This document shows, piece by piece, positions 5,950 through 33,119 of a DNA stretch of 64,000 nucleotides. This DNA comes from Escherichia virus TH54, in sequence record MT446420.1, one strand, 5' to 3'. The position numbers and the translations under genes are program-made. The notes under the pieces were generated by a model that saw only the letters and a program-made list of their open reading frames with translations, did no database searches and was not told where the DNA came from. The stretch's first letter is position 1; each line of letters opens with the position of its first letter.

Positions 5950-6040
5950 AAGTCACCTGCACCGAAATCATCTAATTTAGCTAGGGTCTTAGCATAACCA
6001 ATACCGATGATAAGATACAAAACACCCAACGATAATTCAA

Positions 6041-6304
6041 TCATTTAAAATATTCTCGCAGTTGGTCGAAGCCACCAATATGACTTCCGTCAGGGGCAAA
6101 TACTTGCGGCATGGTCAAACCAATTTGGGATTCGCGACCAAGCGCAACCAGGAGTTGAGCAATCTTCTCATCATCAAACACACCTTTTTCTGGCATAACG
6201 TTGATGAACTCGTAAGGTTGTTTTTTAACATCCAAAAAACGTTTTGCATTATCGCAGAATACACAGCGATGAATAGATGAATCATAACCATATACTTTAA
6301 ACAT
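6041..6304 (-). CDS. nrdC: thioredoxin/glutaredoxin
   Basis: 87 aa, near-identical to remembered T4 NrdC (MFKVYGYDS...CVYCDNAK...). Confidence 0.95.
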   Translation of the reverse strand: MFKVYGYDSSIHRCVFCDNAKRFLDVKKQPYEFINVMPEKGVFDDEKIAQLLVALGRESQIGLTMPQVFAPDGSHIGGFDQLREYFK

Positions 6305-6305
6305 A

Positions 6306-6563
6306 TTATTCCTTAATTCCTAATACTTGTTTGAAGGTCTCAGTATAATCGGGGTATTGACCGGTTTGTTCTTTATGTTTGACCATAATACCATAAACTT
6401 CTGAACGCATATTATTATATGAACGAGTTAAAGCAGATTTCAATACTGAATAACTATCCGGAAGTTTACCGTGTTCTTTATAATAGGCCAGAGTTAATTC
6501 ACGGACCGCCTTATCAGCAGTCTCAAGATATTCTTTACGCTTTGCCATTTTCGTCTCGCTCAA
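6306..6563 (-). CDS. hypothetical protein, 85 aa
   Basis: ORF track. Confidence 0.55.
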
Positions 6564-6828
6564 ATTTGTGTTTACAATGTCTGCATTTGTAACGAAGAGT
6601 ACTAGTCTGCCAATGGACTAACTGTACCTGTTCAGTTCCACATTCTGGACAGTTAGGAACACGCTTAGAAGCACGTTCACGACGACGAACCATAGCCATT
6701 ACTGTATCCCAATCAGGAACCTGACTATAATCATCAGTCCAGTTTATAAGACCTTTATCAAACCCCGCTGCGGGGGTCCATTCTGGAAATGCAGTTTCTG
6801 CAATATCTTCAGCTAAACGTTGTTTCAT
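6535..6828 (-). CDS. hypothetical Cys4 zinc-ribbon protein
   Basis: CPEC...CRHC motif. Confidence 0.55.
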
Positions 6829-7817
6829 TTCAGCAGCTCCAGAGCTTGTTCCAGTTTATCCAGACGATTGGTTGATTCTTCCCAAAGTCGTTTGGCTTTT
6901 GTATAATCTTCAGTTGCCTTTTTATTAATAGCAAGAGCTTCATTATACGCCGTTTCCAGGGCAACAATTTCAGGCGCTTTTTGTTTCACTGGCTCATTAT
7001 TCAGATTATCAATCAGGTCTTCAAGGGTAGTAACTTCATGCGGAGCGTTCATAATTTCCTCACTTTTCTTTTTATAAATTTCTGCATCAGTTGGTTGTTT
7101 TGCACATTTAACTTCACGCAATGTCACCACAATTTTCCAACCTTTCCAACCATGAGCACTGGTGATAGGGTCTACTTTAATTTTTTCAACAGTGCGCATA
7201 TAATTAAGGGCACACTGTACCTGATGAGTAAGCGTACAGGCAACATCAAGATACTTTTTGACATTTTCTGGAGTAGCCACCGGCGTAAAGAACTCATGCT
7301 TAACTGTAATAATTACTTGGTTTTCACCAGACTCTTTAACCTTTATCATATGCTCAGCCAAATGGGAGATAGTGCGAAAATCACCACCCATCAATTTTGT
7401 CGCTGATTTTATGATAGACATTTTGTTATCTCTGAATTCACGAGCCCAGCAATTTGCGAATTCAGAAACAGTATAGCCTTGCTTATCAAGGTAGTATTTT
7501 TCAACATCACCAAACCAATGATATCCAATTGTACCTTTACCACGTCTGGATTCAACACCAAACTTATTAAGAAGGTCTTTATTAACCAGGTATGCCAGAA
7601 CTCGGGAACCTTTAAAAGTTTTCTTGATATCATCATTACCAGCACGACTCGCAATAGTCGCAATGTCTTTCTTGAAGCGACCAGATGCAACAATCGTCGA
7701 ATCAATCTGATTTAACCAGAAATTGATAATTGAAAGGATAGCCGATTCACCTATTAATGGTTTTACTTTTGCATCGATAGTGGTGTTAAAGGCCTGGATA
7801 TATTCGTTACGCGTCAT
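6825..7817 (-). CDS. hypothetical protein, 330 aa, C-terminal coiled coil
   Basis: ORF track; shares C-terminal tail with 7876..8781 and 9000..9845. Confidence 0.7.
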   Translation of the reverse strand: MTRNEYIQAFNTTIDAKVKPLIGESAILSIINFWLNQIDSTIVASGRFKKDIATIASRAGNDDIKKTFKGSRVLAYLVNKDLLNKFGVESRRGKGTIGYHWFGDVEKYYLDKQGYTVSEFANCWAREFRDNKMSIIKSATKLMGGDFRTISHLAEHMIKVKESGENQVIITVKHEFFTPVATPENVKKYLDVACTLTHQVQCALNYMRTVEKIKVDPITSAHGWKGWKIVVTLREVKCAKQPTDAEIYKKKSEEIMNAPHEVTTLEDLIDNLNNEPVKQKAPEIVALETAYNEALAINKKATEDYTKAKRLWEESTNRLDKLEQALELLK

Positions 7818-8999: not shown

Positions 9000-9845
9000 T
9001 TAAGCCTTAAGCAATTTAATAACGTCCATCAGTTTCTGACGTTCAGCTTTCGCTGCACTGTTCAAGCCTGTCAGGCGGAAAATTTCATCATCTTGCTGCT
9101 GGATGGTGATGTTAAGCTCTTCAATCTGTTTAGTGAAAAGCTCAATTTGCTCTGAATATTTTTCATTGCTTCGCACTGGAACAGGTTCCATTTTAGGAGC
9201 TTGTTCTGAAGAGTCTTCAGTCAAGTCTTTAATTTTATAAAGTTTAATACGCTGACCTGCTCCAGTTTCAGCATCACCAAAACTAAGAACGCCGTGTTGT
9301 TCTAATTCAGACAGGGCCAAGCGCAAATGGAACTTCCAGTTGTCATATTGACAACCACTAAAAGTTGAAATGGTATACTCATTTTCATTTCCGGGGTGGT
9401 TAACAATATTAAAGATAATCCAATCACCTGAACCGTTAGTCTTAAATGTCATTTGTTTATCAAGACCTTTTGCAAGACGAGCACCAAGGGCCAGTAGACG
9501 ACGTTGATTAGTATTAAGGTCTTTAACAACTTCGCCAAATGACATCGCCGGGATTAAACGACCATAAAGGTCGTAGCCTTTGTTATAATTTTTAAGAATA
9601 ATTTTGGCATTAGCACGAGACAACATACCTGTTTTACGAAGAGTTTTCATGACTCGGTCTTCTAAGGTAAACGAACCTTTAGTCTTGTCAAAGATTTTAG
9701 TGAAGTCATCTTTAACAGTACAAACATTGAACTTGTCCCACATCATATATAGGACCTTTTCAACCACTTCTTTAGTGCTCGGAATACGCCCGAATTTAAC
9801 AACTTTTTTAACTTCAGAACGAATTTCATTAATTGCTTGCGACAT
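9000..9845 (-). CDS. hypothetical protein, 281 aa, C-terminal coiled coil
   Basis: ORF track. Confidence 0.7.
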   Translation of the reverse strand: MSQAINEIRSEVKKVVKFGRIPSTKEVVEKVLYMMWDKFNVCTVKDDFTKIFDKTKGSFTLEDRVMKTLRKTGMLSRANAKIILKNYNKGYDLYGRLIPAMSFGEVVKDLNTNQRRLLALGARLAKGLDKQMTFKTNGSGDWIIFNIVNHPGNENEYTISTFSGCQYDNWKFHLRLALSELEQHGVLSFGDAETGAGQRIKLYKIKDLTEDSSEQAPKMEPVPVRSNEKYSEQIELFTKQIEELNITIQQQDDEIFRLTGLNSAAKAERQKLMDVIKLLKA

Positions 9846-9908
9846 AATAATTTCCTCAATAGATTAATCAAAGGTCAGAACCATTATACCATCCTTGGTA
9901 TAAAGCGT

Positions 9909-10433
9909 TTATGCGAGAACCGTCTTTAAACGCTCTTCAAACTTCTGAAGGAGTGCCTGGCGCTCTGCTCTTTGTTTGGTATAGGTTTCAATACGCTCTG
10001 AAGTGAGATTGTATTGTTCATTAACTGATTCCCGCATGAATTCAGGAATCTCTTTACATGCTTTGATTTCATTGAACTTATCAAGCACCGCTTGTTGTTC
10101 AGCAATCAGACCATCATAATATTGGATATCTGATTTGATGTTTTGTACATCAGATTCAGTAGGCATATTTTTCTTTGCTCTTGATGCCTGATACTCAGCA
10201 TTAGTCTCTCTTGACCAGAACAAAGAGCGGTTTTTATTGGTGTTTTTATACACATCAACAATACCAACTGAATCAACAGTCACAATCCAGTTCCAGGCGT
10301 TTTTATAAGTTTGACCACCTGATACTGTAATCTCACCAGCACAAGCAACATCATTAAAGAACTTGCTTTGTGCTTCTGATTTAAAATTACCATTATTGTA
10401 ATTAATCAGATTAAAGATTGATTTGGCTTCCAT
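9909..10433 (-). CDS. hypothetical protein, 174 aa
   Basis: ORF track; preceded by conserved leader cassette. Confidence 0.65.
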   Translation of the reverse strand: MEAKSIFNLINYNNGNFKSEAQSKFFNDVACAGEITVSGGQTYKNAWNWIVTVDSVGIVDVYKNTNKNRSLFWSRETNAEYQASRAKKNMPTESDVQNIKSDIQYYDGLIAEQQAVLDKFNEIKACKEIPEFMRESVNEQYNLTSERIETYTKQRAERQALLQKFEERLKTVLA

Positions 10434-10435
10434 TT

Positions 10436-10500
10436 TATTCTCCAGTATTTGGTAACTCAGTATGGGAACATTATACGTCTATCCCCATACTATGTACACA
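10436..10500 (-). promoter_or_regulatory. early promoter/leader cassette (conserved CCATACTGAGTTACCAAATA ... GGAGAATAAAATG)
   Basis: repeated about 50-nt element. Confidence 0.5.
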
Positions 10501-10501
10501 T

Positions 10502-10804
10502 TTAATTAAAAGTTCTTTCAGTATTTTCACCGCTGAACCAGACGCTCTTAACGGCTTGCTGGGCGCGATGGAGCTGCTCTGCCATATAAACACCAAGGGC
10601 CTCAGCTTTACGTGTCCTGTGAGCTTCTGCGGCGACCATTTGCAGCTTATCCATCATGATAAGAGCTTTGCATTTCTCCTTCAGAGCATATCGCTTCTTC
10701 TCTTCTGGAGTTTTGACCATTCCTCTTAACTTGTGCATTTTCAACTTAAAATGGTCAGCAGATTTCAGACATGCATCAATCATGTCAATTTCATACTTTT
10801 TCAT
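10502..10804 (-). CDS. hypothetical protein, 100 aa
   Basis: ORF track. Confidence 0.55.
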   Translation of the reverse strand: MKKYEIDMIDACLKSADHFKLKMHKLRGMVKTPEEKKRYALKEKCKALIMMDKLQMVAAEAHRTRKAEALGVYMAEQLHRAQQAVKSVWFSGENTERTFN

Positions 10805-10810
10805 AATTCC

Positions 10811-11017
10811 TCACTTGCGACGACGTTTTGGTAATGGTTTAGGGAAGAACATTGCTTTACCTGCAGGGGTCAAAGTCACACGTAAAGCATTACCAATACC
10901 AAGGGATGCTTTAACCAGACCTTTGGCTTTTAACTCACCAAATGCTTGACGTTGTTCAGGGTCACGAGTGTTAACCATCAGACCTTTTTCACCAGCAGCT
11001 TTGATTAATTCTAACAT
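10811..11017 (-). CDS. hypothetical basic protein, 68 aa
   Basis: ORF track; conserved leader upstream. Confidence 0.55.
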   Translation of the reverse strand: MLELIKAAGEKGLMVNTRDPEQRQAFGELKAKGLVKASLGIGNALRVTLTPAGKAMFFPKPLPKRRRK

Positions 11018-11019
11018 TT

Positions 11020-11095
11020 TATTCTCCGTTTGTTTATTTGGTAACTCAGTATGGAATCATTATGCATCATGACCATCTGGTTGTACACATATACT
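11020..11095 (-). promoter_or_regulatory. early promoter/leader cassette
   Basis: same conserved element as 10436..10500. Confidence 0.5.
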
Positions 11096-11134
11096 AAATA
11101 AAAATACTTAATAAAACCATAAAGGAGAAAGTTT

Positions 11135-11881
11135 ATGATTTTATCCGGAAGAACTGTTGATGAACTCAATGAAAAAGTCCAGGCTGCCTTGGCTAATAAT
11201 TGGTATTTGTTTGGTTCGACTATGGTGTTGCCGAATACCCCTACGGATAGCAAAGAGCGTTTTTTCCAAACTATGTCCAGCTCGGAAACTCAGATACCGG
11301 GTCCACCTGGTCCCAAAGGAGAACCGGGTGTACCAGGACCAAAAGGAGACCCAGGTGGGGATGGAAAATCTTCTTATCAGATATGGCTTGACTTGGGAAA
11401 TACAGGAACTGTTGATGATTTTTTAACTGATACAGCAGGAAAGAGGGAAAAATCCGAGGTGTTTTGGAGTGGTATAAACGTTCTATTAACCAATGGTGTG
11501 ACTTCAAACATAATTAGTGTTTTAAAGGGGATTCCACCGACTGCAGGGACTCTATCTCCGTTTTTTAGAACCACTGATGATAAGTTGTGGCCATATAACC
11601 AAGACAGAAGCCTAATGTTTAAACTCAACCTTATTGGTAATTTTGCAGGAGCCTCGCAAGCTCGAAGTATAACATTAAATTTCGTTGGAACCAACGGAAA
11701 CACTTATATACAGAATCGTCCGGAAAATGCTACAGATATTTTGTCTTTTACAACGTTCTTTAGCATTGATAAAGATGGGGCAATGGCAACCAATGGTACA
11801 GCTATAACTGTTATGCCAAATGGCGGCAACTTTACAATAACCTCTGCATTGTTAGTAGCCGAACAAACAGTGACTTCATAA
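11135..11881 (+). CDS. collagen-like repeat protein (Gly-X-Y x8) with beta-rich C-terminal domain; opposite strand to flanking genes
   Basis: GPPGPKGEPGVPGPKGDPGGDG repeat; AGGAG RBS; terminator hairpin downstream. Confidence 0.7.
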   Translation: MILSGRTVDELNEKVQAALANNWYLFGSTMVLPNTPTDSKERFFQTMSSSETQIPGPPGPKGEPGVPGPKGDPGGDGKSSYQIWLDLGNTGTVDDFLTDTAGKREKSEVFWSGINVLLTNGVTSNIISVLKGIPPTAGTLSPFFRTTDDKLWPYNQDRSLMFKLNLIGNFAGASQARSITLNFVGTNGNTYIQNRPENATDILSFTTFFSIDKDGAMATNGTAITVMPNGGNFTITSALLVAEQTVTS

Positions 11882-11883
11882 AC

Positions 11884-11905
11884 AAAAAAGGGCCGTATGG
11901 CCCTT
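11884..11905 (-). terminator. bidirectional rho-independent terminator (GGGCC-GTAT-GGCCC flanked by A6/T-run)
   Basis: GC hairpin plus T-run on minus strand. Confidence 0.65.
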
Positions 11906-12146
11906 AGATTGCACTCCAAAAATTATGGAATCTTATAGTATTGATAGCCCAGTTAACAAACCTGCGAGTTTGCTTGGGAGTTGGTTTGCATATGTACTTG
12001 ATATTGACCCGACGACCAGTTTCACGACAGACTGCTTCGAGATACCAGCGGCGACCTTTATGAGGTCTTCCATACGATAAGAAGACCTTGATTTCCTGGT
12101 TATCGATAATAGGAATTGTGGTTGTCAAGATATACCTCCTCAACAA
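11904..12146 (-). CDS. hypothetical basic protein, 80 aa (may be spurious)
   Basis: ORF track. Confidence 0.3.
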   Translation of the reverse strand: MLRRYILTTTIPIIDNQEIKVFLSYGRPHKGRRWYLEAVCRETGRRVNIKYICKPTPKQTRRFVNWAINTIRFHNFWSAI

Positions 12147-13110
12147 ACTTGTCCCAGAACTTCATGTCCACCTTCGCAGGCATACCATTCTTAGCAGCCC
12201 AGATGGCATTAGTTTCGACTTCATCAACGATAGCTTCAAGTTCAGCCTGTACATCTTTAAAAGCATGTAACCCTTGTTTGATTTCAAGGATAAACGGTGC
12301 TGTTCGTAAAGGATATTGAAGGTCACCGGTCATATAAATTTCCTTCAGCTGATATCCAGCTCGATAAGCATGACTCAATGCTTTCCAGTCAATACCTTCA
12401 TTCGCTTCGGCCTTACGAGCACGTTCACCATATTCGGCATCAAGTTTATTCAGAGATTGCTTGAGCTCGATTAAAGACAGAGTAGTTTGGTATTTACGAC
12501 CGAGGACAGTATAGAACGTTTGAGGACCTGTTTTCTCATGGTTATGAAATACCCATTCACAGAACTCGTTTTCAGGGAGCCGGTGCTTAATATCTTCTAC
12601 CTTAGTACGTCGTTGCTTAGTAGAACCATCTTCTTGATAATCGACCCATTGTTCAGGAATCTGGTTAACGATTTCCAATACACCACGCAGTGCAGCCAAT
12701 CGAGAACCTTTAACACCATATTTGGAAGCTTGCTTGCGGACATACCCCAAATAGGCTTTCATGTTGGTTGTATAGAACCGCGAACGGTTATCCTGAATAA
12801 ACTTCCATACATCTGGTAAATCGGATTTGACAACCAGGTCAGCCGGCGTGTGAATCATGTCCAGAGCAACGGTTTCGCCTTCGGCCGCCAGTTTAAAGAA
12901 ATATTTCAGACTATAAAGTTCATGGTCAACATCATCTTTTGTATTTTTGGTAGCCGTGTTATTCGTGTTCAGGTTGGTATGGTTCATCGCCGTCCCAAGT
13001 AGAATATCACGAGGATGTGGAACAAAGATTTCTTTAAAATCGACATCAGATTCTGGGGTACTTGTTCCATAAAGGTGGCTACCGAAGTAGCCTTTCATAA
13101 TAGTTTTCAT
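12100..13110 (-). CDS. Pol-beta superfamily nucleotidyltransferase-like protein, about 336 aa
   Basis: GSHLYGTSTPESDVDF (GS-x10-DxD) motif near N-terminus. Confidence 0.7.
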   Translation of the reverse strand: MKTIMKGYFGSHLYGTSTPESDVDFKEIFVPHPRDILLGTAMNHTNLNTNNTATKNTKDDVDHELYSLKYFFKLAAEGETVALDMIHTPADLVVKSDLPDVWKFIQDNRSRFYTTNMKAYLGYVRKQASKYGVKGSRLAALRGVLEIVNQIPEQWVDYQEDGSTKQRRTKVEDIKHRLPENEFCEWVFHNHEKTGPQTFYTVLGRKYQTTLSLIELKQSLNKLDAEYGERARKAEANEGIDWKALSHAYRAGYQLKEIYMTGDLQYPLRTAPFILEIKQGLHAFKDVQAELEAIVDEVETNAIWAAKNGMPAKVDMKFWDKFVEEVYLDNHNSYYR

Positions 13111-13559
13111 TCTTTGTCCTCGAAGTGGATTACTGGGCACATCTTAAATTTACGAGCTTTAATATATTGAATGAAAACATTTTCTTTAATTTCCTTTCCT
13201 TCACGTTTAGCTTTAATGCGTTCCCATTCTTTTTCTTCTTTACGTAAATCGTACCAGGCCCATAAATTCATTATACAATATACAATACCGACGGCTACCG
13301 CTAGAATAAGAGCCAGTGTAACCAGTCCTAAAATAAAACCTAAACTTAAGCCAACAGGAGTACTCAATACAAAGAACTGCTCCAATATACCAGCACCTGC
13401 AACAGTTAAGCCGAAAATAGTACTACCTGCAAGCACAGAACACATAAAGCACACCCAAACCATTTTCCAGAAGTATGCGCATAATGAGCGTGGACGTGAA
13501 TAACTGGCATAAAAACGGTCGTGTAATTTAACGTGCCAAGAGTTTGAATTGATAATCAT
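13107..13559 (-). CDS. membrane protein, 150 aa
   Basis: multiple hydrophobic helices. Confidence 0.6.
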   Translation of the reverse strand: MIINSNSWHVKLHDRFYASYSRPRSLCAYFWKMVWVCFMCSVLAGSTIFGLTVAGAGILEQFFVLSTPVGLSLGFILGLVTLALILAVAVGIVYCIMNLWAWYDLRKEEKEWERIKAKREGKEIKENVFIQYIKARKFKMCPVIHFEDKE

Positions 13560-13569
13560 AATATTTTCC

Positions 13570-14130
13570 TTAAGAGTTCATAGTTGGGATAACAGAGTTC
13601 AGATAAGAGACTAAAACTTTTAGCTCGTCTTTAGTAAATACCACTTCACTTTCGCCGTCATGTCTTTGGACAATGGACAACAAGTCACGGCCGTTATGTT
13701 GATGCACAGTCAGTTCAGTATTATAATCTAATTCCTCTTCATCGCCTTCAAACGTTTCGCTAGAGCGAATCAGTGCGTCTTGTCCTGGGACTTTCCATTC
13801 AACTTCTGGTTTACATTCTTCCTGGAACAGTTTGAAAATACAATCAAAGAATTTATCAGAATCGCTGATGCTCAGACATTCAATACCATTTTCTAAATTA
13901 AACCCGTTTTCGTTTTTATAGATATAGGCATACATATCATCATTGATATCAACAGGAGCACTAGCACGACCATTAAGATAATCGTGTCTATCCAAAACCA
14001 TTAAATCATAAAGCGGTTTAATATCAGCGATAGTCAGTACGATTTTATCGTCTTCTTGACAAAGCTCAATTGCGTTATTAACTACTTCAGCGGTCAGTTC
14101 GCCAAACAATTCAGTTGTTTCAATAATCAT
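13570..14130 (-). CDS. hypothetical acidic protein, 186 aa
   Basis: ORF track. Confidence 0.6.
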   Translation of the reverse strand: MIIETTELFGELTAEVVNNAIELCQEDDKIVLTIADIKPLYDLMVLDRHDYLNGRASAPVDINDDMYAYIYKNENGFNLENGIECLSISDSDKFFDCIFKLFQEECKPEVEWKVPGQDALIRSSETFEGDEEELDYNTELTVHQHNGRDLLSIVQRHDGESEVVFTKDELKVLVSYLNSVIPTMNS

Positions 14131-14140
14131 TTTCTGTTCC

Positions 14141-14431
14141 TCAACGGTTATGTTTTAAAATACTATAAAGTGCTTCTACTTGGCTTGCATCCAGGTAAAT
14201 AACATCATCATCTTGCTCAATGGAAATCCCACCAGTATTACCTTTAACAAAATTACATTCGCACACTTCAACCGGGCGGTATACGTCACCAACTGGATGC
14301 TCAGGCTCCAGAACAATCACACCATTTTCAGAATTACCACTTGGGTCATATAACATTACAGTTTCCTCGCTAACCATGAAAAGAATAAACCAATTAAAAC
14401 AGGCCCTATAGCCATTGTTAACCAAGCCCAA
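14141..14431 (-). CDS. hypothetical protein, 96 aa
   Basis: ORF track. Confidence 0.5.
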   Translation of the reverse strand: MGLVNNGYRACFNWFILFMVSEETVMLYDPSGNSENGVIVLEPEHPVGDVYRPVEVCECNFVKGNTGGISIEQDDDVIYLDASQVEALYSILKHNR

Positions 14432-14447
14432 GGTTCAAGATAGTAAA

Positions 14448-14705
14448 TCATCTCATGCTCCTGTGCCAACAATTTCTTGGTTCACGTTTAAAAATTTCAT
14501 CATGCATTGATTGACAACCAACACAATATATCACACCCCTAATCGCTTGTCTCCGCGCTTCAGGAATTTTTTCATCGCAGTCAAAACAGAATTCAGCAGA
14601 CTCCCTTTCAACTGCAACCTGTGCTCTCGCATGGGTGATAGCGGCTTGTACAACCGCTTCCATCTCTAACTGTTCAGCACCATCTTTTGCAAATCCAACA
14701 GCCAT
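14448..14705 (-). CDS. TraR/DksA-type C4 zinc-finger protein
   Basis: CFDC-x17-CVGC motif. Confidence 0.7.
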   Translation of the reverse strand: MAVGFAKDGAEQLEMEAVVQAAITHARAQVAVERESAEFCFDCDEKIPEARRQAIRGVIYCVGCQSMHDEIFKREPRNCWHRSMR

Positions 14706-14887
14706 TATTCTTTCAACCCATTCAGATAAGCAATTAATTCTTCTTTAGAACTATTCAAATCACGCTTGCACTGTTCTATTCCAGAATATGAATAACCTTC
14801 ACATAATTCAACAGCCAGGTCATTGGATGCGTTTTCAATGTGCCAAGCAAGTTTGATAATTTTTTCAATCTGTTCAGTAGTTAACAT
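14705..14887 (-). CDS. small protein, paralog 1 of MITLEQ family
   Basis: MLTTEQIEKIIKL start; tandem with two paralogs. Confidence 0.55.
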   Translation of the reverse strand: MLTTEQIEKIIKLAWHIENASNDLAVELCEGYSYSGIEQCKRDLNSSKEELIAYLNGLKE

Positions 14888-15081
14888 TATGCAGTCCTGT
14901 AATCAATAATTTCGTCAAGGAACATATCCAATGCTTCCAGAGCATTGTCAACCTTTGCTTCTAATTCTTCACCACCACCAAGCGATGGGGACCAATACGC
15001 AAAGTCATTTAGTGTTTCATCTGCTTCGCGAATCGCTTTTACCAATGCTTTAATTCTATCAGCTTGTTCTAAAGTAATCAT
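14887..15081 (-). CDS. small protein, paralog 2 of MITLEQ family
   Basis: MITLEQADRIKAL. Confidence 0.55.
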   Translation of the reverse strand: MITLEQADRIKALVKAIREADETLNDFAYWSPSLGGGEELEAKVDNALEALDMFLDEIIDYRTA

Positions 15082-15266
15082 TATTCCACCAATGATTCAA
15101 TGAAGGTATCAAGAGCTGCTTTAGCTTCATCCATTTGTTCTTCACACCGATTTCTGGTGTAATAATCAGATAAATCAGATTCAGATACTACAGTAAAGAA
15201 TCGGACTTCTTTCTTGTAGTTGGCGATAAGTTCTTTAAGTTTTTGAGCTTGTTCTAAAGTAATCAT
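15081..15266 (-). CDS. small protein, paralog 3 of MITLEQ family (start trimmed)
   Basis: MITLEQAQKLKEL; 33-bp DNA repeat at gene junction. Confidence 0.55.
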   Translation of the reverse strand: MITLEQAQKLKELIANYKKEVRFFTVVSESDLSDYYTRNRCEEQMDEAKAALDTFIESLVE

Positions 15267-15469
15267 TATTCCACCACATATGATAATGAGAAAATTGCTG
15301 ATGAAAGATGAGTAGCATCTTCTTCGCACAGTTCAAATGGAGCTTTCTGTAAGAGTTCAACAACTTCTTCATCAGTGGCACTGTCCATAAAGATTGCATA
15401 ATCATTAAGATAGATAACAACCTCATCACCAGTATTAACTGCATCAATCTTGATATTTTTAATTCTCAT
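15266..15469 (-). CDS. hypothetical acidic protein, 67 aa
   Basis: ORF track; promoter cassette upstream. Confidence 0.5.
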   Translation of the reverse strand: MRIKNIKIDAVNTGDEVVIYLNDYAIFMDSATDEEVVELLQKAPFELCEEDATHLSSAIFSLSYVVE

Positions 15470-15530
15470 TGTATTCTCCTCAGTAGTTGATGGGATAATA
15501 GTACACCCTTTTTATGAGGATGTAAACCCC
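15470..15530 (-). promoter_or_regulatory. early promoter-like cassette
   Basis: GTTTACAT -35-like plus conserved leader. Confidence 0.45.
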
Positions 15531-15537
15531 TAAATGA

Positions 15538-15566
15538 AAAAAGGTCCACCCGAAGGCAGACCTTTT
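15538..15566 (-). terminator. terminator-like hairpin flanked by A/T runs
   Basis: AAAAAGGTC...GACCTTTT. Confidence 0.45.
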
Positions 15567-15569
15567 GAA

Positions 15570-15953
15570 TTACTCTAGTGTTAACAGATACTTAGTCTGA
15601 AAGAAAACTCCAACGATATCGTCCAGAGTCGATTGAATAGCCTTAGGTACAACTTTATAGACTCTTTCCGAGCTTTTAATCATTTCATCTAAAAACAAAA
15701 TTGTATCTTTCGGCAAGTCCGAGGCGGACGGTAATGCAGCTTTGTATTGTTTCCCGCTGTAACCTAACCATTGCTCACTGAACTGGTCGAGTGGACCTTG
15801 GATTTCTGTGAAGTAGAAATCATAAGCTTTATGGCGGGCGTAACTTTTGGTTTCAAGATGGGCGGACTTAAAATAAGCCAAAGAGACTAACAACCACCCA
15901 ATATATGAATCCACCTCAGACCCACGACCCGTTACGAAATCATCAAATTTCAT
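15570..15953 (-). CDS. hypothetical protein, 127 aa
   Basis: ORF track. Confidence 0.55.
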   Translation of the reverse strand: MKFDDFVTGRGSEVDSYIGWLLVSLAYFKSAHLETKSYARHKAYDFYFTEIQGPLDQFSEQWLGYSGKQYKAALPSASDLPKDTILFLDEMIKSSERVYKVVPKAIQSTLDDIVGVFFQTKYLLTLE

Positions 15954-16236
15954 CTTCCAATTTTACCTTCATTAATTTAGCGTATTCGACTGCAGCAGCA
16001 CGGCCATCAATTTGACATGTGATTTCATTTACACATTGGCTCTTATTGTTCCATTCAGTTTTAATAAAAGCCCAAAATTGTTCGGACTGCTCGACGCTGG
16101 GTTCTTTGAATTGCGAATAGATTTGCATCGCACTATCTGCATACTGGGTAAATTTACCATCTGTAGCAGAGGACATATTTGGGCCTAAACAGCCCATTAG
16201 TAATAGACTTAGAGAAAGTCCTCGAATAAGGTCCAT
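15943..16236 (-). CDS. rI: lysis inhibition antiholin RI, 97 aa
   Basis: 97 aa as T4 RI; signal-anchor N-terminus; conserved SVEQSEQFW...C...C...KLE.E pattern. Confidence 0.75.
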   Translation of the reverse strand: MDLIRGLSLSLLLMGCLGPNMSSATDGKFTQYADSAMQIYSQFKEPSVEQSEQFWAFIKTEWNNKSQCVNEITCQIDGRAAAVEYAKLMKVKLEDEI

Positions 16237-16310
16237 AAAGGACTCCTTATTGTTGGTCATGATTACGCTTTGCAGCCTTAACATAGCGGAATACTAGTTA
16301 GTAACTGTAT

Positions 16311-16586
16311 TTATAATCTTTTAAACTTGAAACAATATATTGCAAATAAATCAGAAAAATGGCTATCAACCCATATTCTTTGCACTGGACTAGTAACAGT
16401 CAGCATATAATGTGCTTTTTGTAAATTTATTCCATTTTTATTCGGACATTCTTTATTAACAGAATGGTACGTGCTTGCTACTATTTCAATTTCCCTTTCA
16501 TATCTCTCGCTATCTGTTTGTGTGGGGATAAATGCAATTCCAGCAATAACAAAAATAGAGATATACGTCCAAATCTTATATATCAT
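16311..16586 (-). CDS. membrane-anchored hypothetical protein, 91 aa
   Basis: N-terminal TM helix. Confidence 0.5.
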   Translation of the reverse strand: MIYKIWTYISIFVIAGIAFIPTQTDSERYEREIEIVASTYHSVNKECPNKNGINLQKAHYMLTVTSPVQRIWVDSHFSDLFAIYCFKFKRL

Positions 16587-16593
16587 AAGGACC

Positions 16594-17166
16594 TCAGCTT
16601 GTCAATTCGAGCCAATGTTTCCTGCATAAAGATACGTACGATTCATTCCCACCGACCAATACTTGCTCGCCGTCCTTTACAGCAGCACCGTCGATTACTC
16701 GAGCGGTCATGGTTGCTTTCCGGCCGCAATGGCAGACGCCCTTTAATTCAACCAGTTTATCCGAAATAGCCAGAAGTCTGGCTGAACCGGGAAATAACTG
16801 ACCCCGAAAATCTGTTCTTAGCCCGTAACACATAACGGGGATATTGTAATTATCAACCACTCGTGCTAACTGGTCAATTTGCTCTGGCAACAAAAATTGA
16901 GCTTCATCGACCAGGACACAATGGATGTCCTTTTGAGACTCGGCCCATTTATAGAATTCAAACAGGTTCATGTCGGCCGTTACCAGGTTTGCTTCCTGGC
17001 TAATACCAATACGTGATTTAATTTCAGATTCCGAGTCCCGATTATCAATAACAGGCTTTAGCAAAAGCACACTCATTCCACGCTCTTTATAGGAATAAGC
17101 GGCAGTCAGCAATGAAGCTGTTTTGCCTGCATTCATTGCTGCGTAATGATAAATTAAACTCGCCAT
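16594..17166 (-). CDS. tk: thymidine kinase
   Basis: Walker A NAGKTASLL; Cys cluster; size as T4 Tk. Confidence 0.95.
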   Translation of the reverse strand: MASLIYHYAAMNAGKTASLLTAAYSYKERGMSVLLLKPVIDNRDSESEIKSRIGISQEANLVTADMNLFEFYKWAESQKDIHCVLVDEAQFLLPEQIDQLARVVDNYNIPVMCYGLRTDFRGQLFPGSARLLAISDKLVELKGVCHCGRKATMTARVIDGAAVKDGEQVLVGGNESYVSLCRKHWLELTS

Positions 17167-32966: not shown

Positions 32967-33043
32967 TGGTCGGGGTGGTGGGATTCTAACCCACAACCTA
33001 CGGTTTAGAAGACCGTTGCTCTATACAATTGAGCTACACCCCG
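32967..33043 (-). tRNA. tRNA-Arg (anticodon TCT), CCA encoded
   Basis: hand-folded cloverleaf: acceptor CGGGGTG/CACCCCG, D-stem GCTC/GAGC, anticodon loop CTTCTAA, T-stem GTGGG/CCCAC. Confidence 0.8.
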
Positions 33044-33045
33044 GG

Positions 33046-33119
33046 TGGCCCCATCCGGACTTGAACCGGAAACCTGCCAGTTATGAGCCGGATGCTCTAA
33101 CCAATTGAGCTACAGGGCC
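33046..33119 (-). tRNA. tRNA with anticodon CAT (Met or Ile2)
   Basis: hand-folded cloverleaf: acceptor GGCCCTG, D-stem GCTC/GAGC, anticodon loop CTCATAA, T-arm TCCGG-TTCAAGT-CCGGA. Confidence 0.75.

Follow-up and report, generated by a model that had tools for sequence, protein, structure and literature searches.

An orthologue of T4 NrdC.11 in Escherichia virus TH54: an RlaP-family nucleotidyltransferase with a candidate role in tRNA repair

Orthologues of the bacteriophage T4 gene nrdC.11 were matched in 2006 to COG3541, a nucleotidyltransferase COG (PMC1524935). The name RlaP for the Pfam family PF10127, whose genes adjoin RNA ligases, comes from Burroughs and Aravind (2016), as later papers cite them (PMC12776372; PMC7824862). 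By these later accounts, NrdC.11 orthologues were assigned to RlaP, as a family of RNA repair, in that year, and a specific role for them has been proposed in print since then. Iyer et al. describe RlaP as the most prevalent RNA-end-restoring nucleotidyltransferase in jumbo phages, with a distribution that mirrors that of RNA ligases, and predict that it restores the nucleotides lost to RloC-type nucleases ahead of ligation (PMC7824862).

Two Pseudomonas representatives, PfRlaP and PaRlaP, have been characterized biochemically (Carruthers, Fatma and Huang, bioRxiv, December 2025; PMC12776372). These enzymes are Mn2+-dependent, with Mn2+ as the preferred metal, and carry out the untemplated addition of 1-2 NMPs to an RNA 3′-OH, for which they accept any NTP and also dATP, DNA and protein being non-substrates (PMC12776372). 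Their preferred substrate is the 3′ end of the 5′ half in a cleaved tRNA mimic, and they partially rescue the aminoacylation of a tRNA from which one anticodon-loop nucleotide is missing (PMC12776372). A similarity network from the same study names T4 NrdC.11 as an RlaP and assigns it to cluster 5, the assayed enzymes belonging to cluster 1a (PMC12776372). On the phage side, Klaiman et al. noted that excision of the wobble nucleotide by RloC is "expected to frustrate" repair by T4 Pnk and Rnl1 (PMC3458546). T4 remains viable when genome reduction removes the segment from nrdC.11 to mobD.3, and the gene is therefore dispensable on laboratory hosts (PMC9825161).

The nrdC.11 gene of the window phage

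The window analysed here is a stretch of 64,000 nucleotides from Escherichia virus TH54 (sequence record MT446420.1). The features of the window considered here are the following.

12100..13110, minus strand: complete coding sequence of 336 aa plus stop (stop codon 12102..12100), the T4 nrdC.11 orthologue, a Pol-beta nucleotidyltransferase of the RlaP family (ORF list, Pfam, PHROG, tblastn, pairwise alignment)
13107..13121, minus strand: translation start region of nrdC.11, with GAGGA (13121..13117), a 6-nt spacer and the ATG start codon (13110..13108), which shares bases, as ATGA, with the TGA of the upstream membrane-protein ORF (sequence and ORF ends)
13107..13559, minus strand: 150-aa predicted membrane protein in the mobD position, similar to RB69 ORF104c, with a sub-threshold Oleosin match (22.1 bits against a cut-off of 25)
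11904..12146, minus strand: 80-aa ORF with a TTG start, matching DUF7279 in Pfam (34.6 bits against 24.5, E 1.8e-8)
11135..11881, plus strand: 248-aa ORF with a collagen-like G-X-Y stretch and an Sf6-type tail-needle-knob (Pfam PF16532, E 2.9e-32)
32967..33119, minus strand: adjacent genes for tRNA-Arg(TCT) and tRNA-Met(CAT), the only two tRNA genes in the 64-kb window

An alternative GTG start for nrdC.11 at position 13140 was rejected in favor of the ATG, because both the GAGGA ribosome-binding site and the ATGA coupling fit the latter and because homologues begin with MKT. Plus-strand ORFs within 12100..13110 (for example, 12487..12819) are without support. An Rfam scan of positions 9000..17000 of the window returned no match, and a promoter scan revealed no convincing site beyond shuffle expectation.

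The window protein aligns without gaps to T4 NrdC.11 over 336/336 aa at 82% identity (NP_049709.1; T4p095), for which RefSeq gives the product name "nucleotidyltransferase". Closer still are a protein of Escherichia phage 212, at 99% identity, and JS98 NrdC.11, at 96%. The protein matches PHROG 388 "nucleotidyltransferase" over its whole length (E=1.9e-132), and Pfam identifies PF10127 with 42.4 bits against a cut-off of 23 (E=8.6e-11), a match that spans residues 6-133 and only positions 23-141 of the 249 in the profile. The same family is matched by 132 of 134 diverse homologues. With the protein as query, tblastn found matches in 1516 phage records, and an exhaustive HMMER scan recovered 3070 clusters (50% identity) at E<=1e-3, 791 of them at E<=1e-30. 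The PF10127 and PHROG 388 matches, the phage records and the clusters together place the nucleotidyltransferase motif of this protein far beyond chance.

Membership in the PHROG 388/T4 NrdC.11 group is indicated by genome position as well as by full-length identity. T4 NrdC.11 has the same motifs and the same place in the nrdC-mobD-tk early-gene block, and JS98 carries its orthologue in a matching gene order; the conserved order is ...tk, rI, mobD.x, mobD.1, membrane ORF or mobD, nrdC.11, nrdC.10... The DNA flanking nrdC.11 is 87-93% identical to that of Tevenvirinae phages of the Dhakavirus and Gaprivervirus type. We conclude that the window gene is an orthologue of T4 nrdC.11 and a long-form member of RlaP (RNA-ligase-associated Pol-beta); both the gene and the family are already known, and there is nothing new at either level. 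The first-pass annotation had delimited the ORF and its nucleotidyltransferase signature exactly, was silent on the minus-strand orientation, and was mistaken in recognizing no T4 counterpart. Many GenBank and UniRef entries for orthologues carry the name "thioredoxin", which has apparently spread from the gene name nrdC.11, and single entries are called "HNH homing endonuclease" or "ArsR family regulator"; all of these names are annotation errors.

The window phage differs from its relatives on both sides of the gene. Upstream, T4 has the homing endonuclease gene mobD, whereas the window phage has the membrane-protein ORF. Downstream, T4 and JS98 have nrdC.10, whereas the window phage has the DUF7279 mini-ORF and the collagen/tail-needle-knob ORF. 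The DUF7279 ORF has 47 nt in common with the 3′ end of nrdC.11, read in a different frame; it stops exactly at a terminator-like hairpin (11905..11888) and is without annotation in the RefSeq relative NC_070780. The 248-aa ORF lies on the strand opposite to all of its neighbors and occupies the nrdC.10 place in what looks like a cassette replacement, its structural-type domain being odd within an early-gene block. An AcrVA2-like identity for T4 NrdC.10 itself was ruled out, weak AAA/STAND matches being found instead. The other neighbors of nrdC.11 include small proteins, among them a y05I-like putative transcription factor and a DksA/TraR zinc-finger protein, and ORFs matching DUF7189, DUF7203 and DUF7235. 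Overall, a Pfam scan of the neighboring window ORFs yielded DUFs, and no anti-defence or RNA-repair genes.

Catalytic core, insertion and C-terminal domain

The protein can be divided into the following parts.

12826..13110, minus strand: N-terminal Pol-beta nucleotidyltransferase core, residues 1-95, with strands at 2-9, 23-30, 44-48 and 61-67 (Pfam, hhalign, AlphaFold2)
13036..13083, minus strand: GSHLYGTSTPESDVDF (residues 10-25), with the GS nucleotide-binding turn and the metal-binding carboxylates D22 and D24 (translation, 134 homologues)
12925..12927, minus strand: codon of the putative third catalytic carboxylate, D62, which belongs to the segment DVDHE where strand 61-67 begins (conservation, hhalign)
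12391..12714, minus strand: insertion module, residues ~133-240, composed of a helix, a small beta subdomain and a long helix (AlphaFold2, conservation, RB49)
12103..12390, minus strand: C-terminal helical domain, residues 241-336, with the motif DWKAxSHAxR (12361..12390), which includes K243, H247 and R250

The segment GSHLYGTSTPESDVDF consists of G10-S11, ten residues and D22-V23-D24-F25, and thereby fits the signature G[GS]-x9-13-Dh[DE]h. In an alignment of the window protein with 133 diverse homologues, in which identity extends down to 33%, residues G10, S21, D22, D24, Y131, H247, R250 and P267 are invariant (134/134), K243, R230 and K278 are each kept in 133/134, and 129 sequences have D at position 62, the other 5 having E. 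Comparison with 11 canonical short RlaPs by hhalign (95% probability, E 3e-8, over residues 1-90) pairs D22, D24 and D62 with the invariant D37, D39 and D73 of the short proteins. The window protein therefore possesses the catalytic set of RlaP, namely an hG[GS] turn and three carboxylates, and shares the Pol-beta core with its GS, DxD and third Asp with PfRlaP and PaRlaP. Judged from these alignments, the predicted carboxylate triad D22, D24 and D62 is intact in the nucleotidyltransferase core, and the invariant catalytic residues effectively exclude an inactive protein.

An AlphaFold2 model, for which the homologue alignment was used without its T4 and Cr30 rows, is confident, with a mean pLDDT of 94.5 and a pTM of 0.84. 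It presents two lobes with an inserted module, a helical linker at residues 99-132, and a C-terminal lobe that is helical; in outline, this arrangement of a nucleotidyltransferase and a helical lobe appears similar to that of bacterial RlaP. DWKAxSHAxR is the most conserved motif of the family among the 134 homologues. Residues ~133-240 are the least conserved part, positions 157-168 being gapped in 69% of homologues, and the 232-aa orthologue of the Krischvirus RB49 (L092:2501-3199) lacks precisely this segment. Because it is both poorly conserved and cleanly missing from the RB49 protein, this stretch of ~108 residues is a discrete insertion. To judge from the RB49 orthologue, some T4-like phages naturally do without the insert. 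When long and short RlaPs are compared by hhalign over their C-terminal halves, the probability is 1.7%, which is below significance; a motif common to both, K-x3-[H/Y]-A-x-R, is suggestive only.

Searches of the PDB by sequence, with the single protein and with the 134-sequence profile, returned nothing meaningful, and the PDB copy searched by sequence and by Foldseek yielded no PfRlaP-like chain for superposition. Foldseek likewise found no close relative of the model among solved structures. Its best solved matches are kanamycin nucleotidyltransferase (E 5e-3, TM 0.26-0.35), Hailong HalB and the nucleotidyltransferase-like protein 3c18, each of which, like the window protein, combines a minimal nucleotidyltransferase with a helical HEPN-like domain. 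Within a viral structure library, the model matches well to further "nucleotidyltransferases" of phages.

An alternative reading is that the phage enzyme nucleotidylylates a protein or a small molecule, as KNTase/ANT or MNT enzymes do, for example by AMPylating and thereby neutralizing a host HEPN-type toxin or by modifying a metabolite. We regard this as very unlikely, since the structural matches are weak (identity 9-13% at the TM values given above) and extend only to a generic nucleotidyltransferase core plus helices, the MntA model scores 13.4 bits, far under its cut-off of 60, and E. coli proteins are left unlabelled by the assayed RlaPs (PMC12776372). No toxin gene lies next to nrdC.11 in the window, where the neighbors are the membrane protein, the DUF7279 ORF and the y05I-like protein. 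The two marks of the MNT (MntA) antitoxin of HEPN/MNT type VII systems, namely resemblance to the MntA model and a HEPN toxin gene alongside, are thus both missing.

The HalB match also bears on a reading in which NrdC.11 makes or mimics a nucleotide signal, either as a CD-NTase-like cyclase or as a HalB-like oligonucleotide synthase that spoofs a defence signal, such as one keeping a Hailong channel closed. The similarity to HalB is generic, amounting to 12% identity within the core only. The CD-NTase, SMODS and OAS Pfam families are matched by 0/134 homologues, no CD-NTase is among the best structural matches, and PADLOC reports no defence-system match. The family-specific conserved residues, together with the operon partners described below, point to RNA repair instead. 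Immediately downstream of the NrdC.11 homologue of Caulobacter phage Cr30 lies a gene (L002:3997-4797) that matches PF25187 "CBASS inhibitor Acb3" (E 1.8e-68); this adjacency is confined to that one phage, and no Acb3 homologue occurs among the window ORFs scanned. Taken together, these observations leave a signal-making or signal-mimicking enzyme exceedingly improbable.

Another distant neighborhood is that of a metagenomic phage-like contig, L007, in which a 334-aa gene (L007:6974-7978) comes after the RlaP homologue P0155; for this gene, hmmscan did not reproduce the precomputed Pfam label "AcrVA2-like". A gene of the PolyA_pol/HD CCA-adding type (L007:11703-12969) lies ~5 kb beyond. For three distant representatives, the encoding contigs are short or have uninformative neighbors.

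The first-pass annotation of the gene as a Pol-beta-superfamily nucleotidyltransferase is borne out by PF10127, by hhalign and by residue conservation, with the putative third catalytic Asp located at D62 and no loss of the catalytic acidic residues seen across the 134 homologues. Placement in a nucleotidyltransferase subfamily succeeded by Pfam and hhalign, which indicate RlaP, but not by Foldseek, which offers no close solved relative.

RNA-repair neighborhoods of cellular relatives

Because the PF10127 match covers only the N-terminal domain, the neighborhoods of full-length relatives were examined. Scanning one genome per species gave 156 relatives, of which 80 bacterial or archaeal loci were kept, with proteins that are 33-50% identical over essentially the whole protein. 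Many of these loci belong to Desulfobacterales, Nitrospirota and Alphaproteobacteria, and some to archaeal assemblies. The 80 loci were subjected to ORF calling, clustering of neighbors and Pfam annotation of cluster representatives, and all were then re-searched by tblastn. The partners found within 6 kb of the long RlaP gene are as follows.

Pnkp (kinase-phosphatase-ligase; PF16542, E 2e-172): 8/80 loci
Hen1 (PF12623, E 9e-114): 7/80 loci
RtcB: 7/80 loci
Ro60/TROVE: 3/80 loci
RtcA: 2/80 loci
At least one of Pnkp, Hen1, RtcB, Ro60 and RtcA: 15/80 loci

In a Nitrosospira locus (L047), the gene order is Ro60-RtcB-RtcA-long RlaP-short RlaP-Hen1. Since Pnkp/Hen1 systems are rare in genomes, the presence of a long RlaP beside them is no chance adjacency. 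The NrdC.11-type subfamily is embedded in RNA-repair operons of cellular genomes and, in common with bacterial RlaP, is tied to RtcB, RtcA and Pnkp/Hen1 operons.

A second type of partner is RlaP itself. Downstream sequence of 1 kb or more is available at 70 loci. At 22 of these, a canonical RlaP of ~255 aa, with a full-length PF10127 match (E 3e-51), is encoded within 350 nt downstream of the long gene and on the same strand. When this short form is counted, an RNA-repair or RlaP partner is present at 33/80 loci, and at 24/50 of those with at least 3 kb of sequence on each side; about half of the well-flanked cellular loci have no RNA-repair neighbor. Loci with the long-short pair include L016, L021, L041, L047, L057, L058, L068, L069, L084 and L085 (at ~6000-7800 in each); the pair stands within a full RNA-repair operon at some loci, such as L047, and as an isolated two-gene cassette at others. 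Elsewhere the neighbors are unrelated housekeeping genes (ABC transporters, a laccase, an esterase), and for this reason we conclude that the long/short pair also behaves as a small mobile cassette. The occurrence of both forms side by side in 22 loci suggests that they do not do exactly the same job and are not redundant.

These neighborhoods also help to weigh the proposal that NrdC.11 is an RNA 3′-end tailing enzyme that acts outside anticodon-loop repair, either in repair or maintenance of the CCA ends of host or phage tRNAs or in tagging RNA fragments or mRNA for decay or stabilization. The family adds 1-2 nt to any RNA 3′-OH with little NTP specificity, and in total E. coli RNA the assayed RlaPs labelled rRNA and full-length tRNA too (PMC12776372). 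In addition, the window phage has tRNA genes of its own (tRNA-Arg and tRNA-Met, listed above), and two metagenomic loci (L007 and L008) carry the CCA-adding-type PolyA_pol/HD gene 5 kb from the RlaP homologue. When annealed tRNA halves were supplied, however, the assayed RlaPs favored the end at the internal break over the acceptor end (PMC12776372), and the neighbors of the cellular relatives are healing and sealing enzymes (Pnkp, Hen1, RtcB, RtcA) rather than CCA-adding or decay enzymes. [quoted passage not shown] On balance, we consider a tailing function of this kind unlikely.

Within the window, tblastn with T4 PseT, RnlA and RnlB and with bacterial Pnkp, Hen1, RtcB and Ro60 gave no match, and a short-RlaP query matched nrdC.11 alone. 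The proximity to RNA ligases or RNA-repair genes that characterizes RlaP is therefore found at cellular loci of the subfamily but not within the 64-kb window. Because T4 and JS98 both encode pseT and rnlA, ~80 kb from nrdC.11, the healing (Pnkp) and sealing (Rnl1) partners are present in the lineage, unlinked to nrdC.11. Of the three roles offered at first pass, the only one with support is RNA modification, which agrees with the RlaP biochemistry (PMC12776372) and with the RNA-repair neighborhoods, whereas nucleotide signalling finds no backing in the homologues, the PADLOC result or the best structural matches. To call the role unknown was an overstatement, given that, as later papers relate it, a specific one has been in print since 2016.

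A candidate role in tRNA repair

By analogy with the characterized enzymes, NrdC.11 probably restores tRNA nucleotides lost to host anticodon nucleases, before Pnkp and Rnl1 heal and seal the break. In such a pathway, a host anticodon nuclease would remove nucleotides from a tRNA, as in the excision of the wobble nucleotide by RloC, and Pnkp (pseT) would take off the 2′,3′-cyclic phosphate. NrdC.11 would then extend the 3′-OH of the broken tRNA, enabling Rnl1 (rnlA) to seal an anticodon loop of full length. The gene would accordingly serve as an accessory counter-defence function against RloC-like defences, one that is dispensable on laboratory hosts.

Several observations weigh against this role. 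The chemistry of the family is known from two bacterial short-form RlaPs, which resemble the window protein only in its N-terminal ~90-130 residues; the C-terminal halves of the two forms fail to align significantly, and the assayed enzymes have nothing equivalent to the insert. The nrdC.11 gene of T4-like genomes is unlinked to pseT and rnlA, and the window contains no ligase or kinase gene. Among cellular relatives, a canonical RlaP already stands beside the long form in 22 bacterial loci, and the share of well-flanked loci without an RNA-repair neighbor is considerable, at about one half. Finally, T4 survives the loss of the region from nrdC.11 to mobD.3 (PMC9825161).

The long-short pairs allow a more specific version of the tRNA-repair role, which we put forward tentatively and consider rather doubtful. 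In this version, the long NrdC.11-type form may differ in function from canonical RlaP, the two forming a heterodimer or acting on different ends or nucleotides, with the ~108-residue insert serving as an RNA-recognition module. The solitary long form of the phage might then represent the missing third component of Pnkp-Rnl1 repair.

The long/short pairs hint at a division of labor within the RlaP family. As the third component, the phage enzyme may complete the textbook tRNA repair of T4 against "smart" anticodon nucleases. The phage could then overcome those that, like RloC, excise nucleotides and were thought to be repair-proof.
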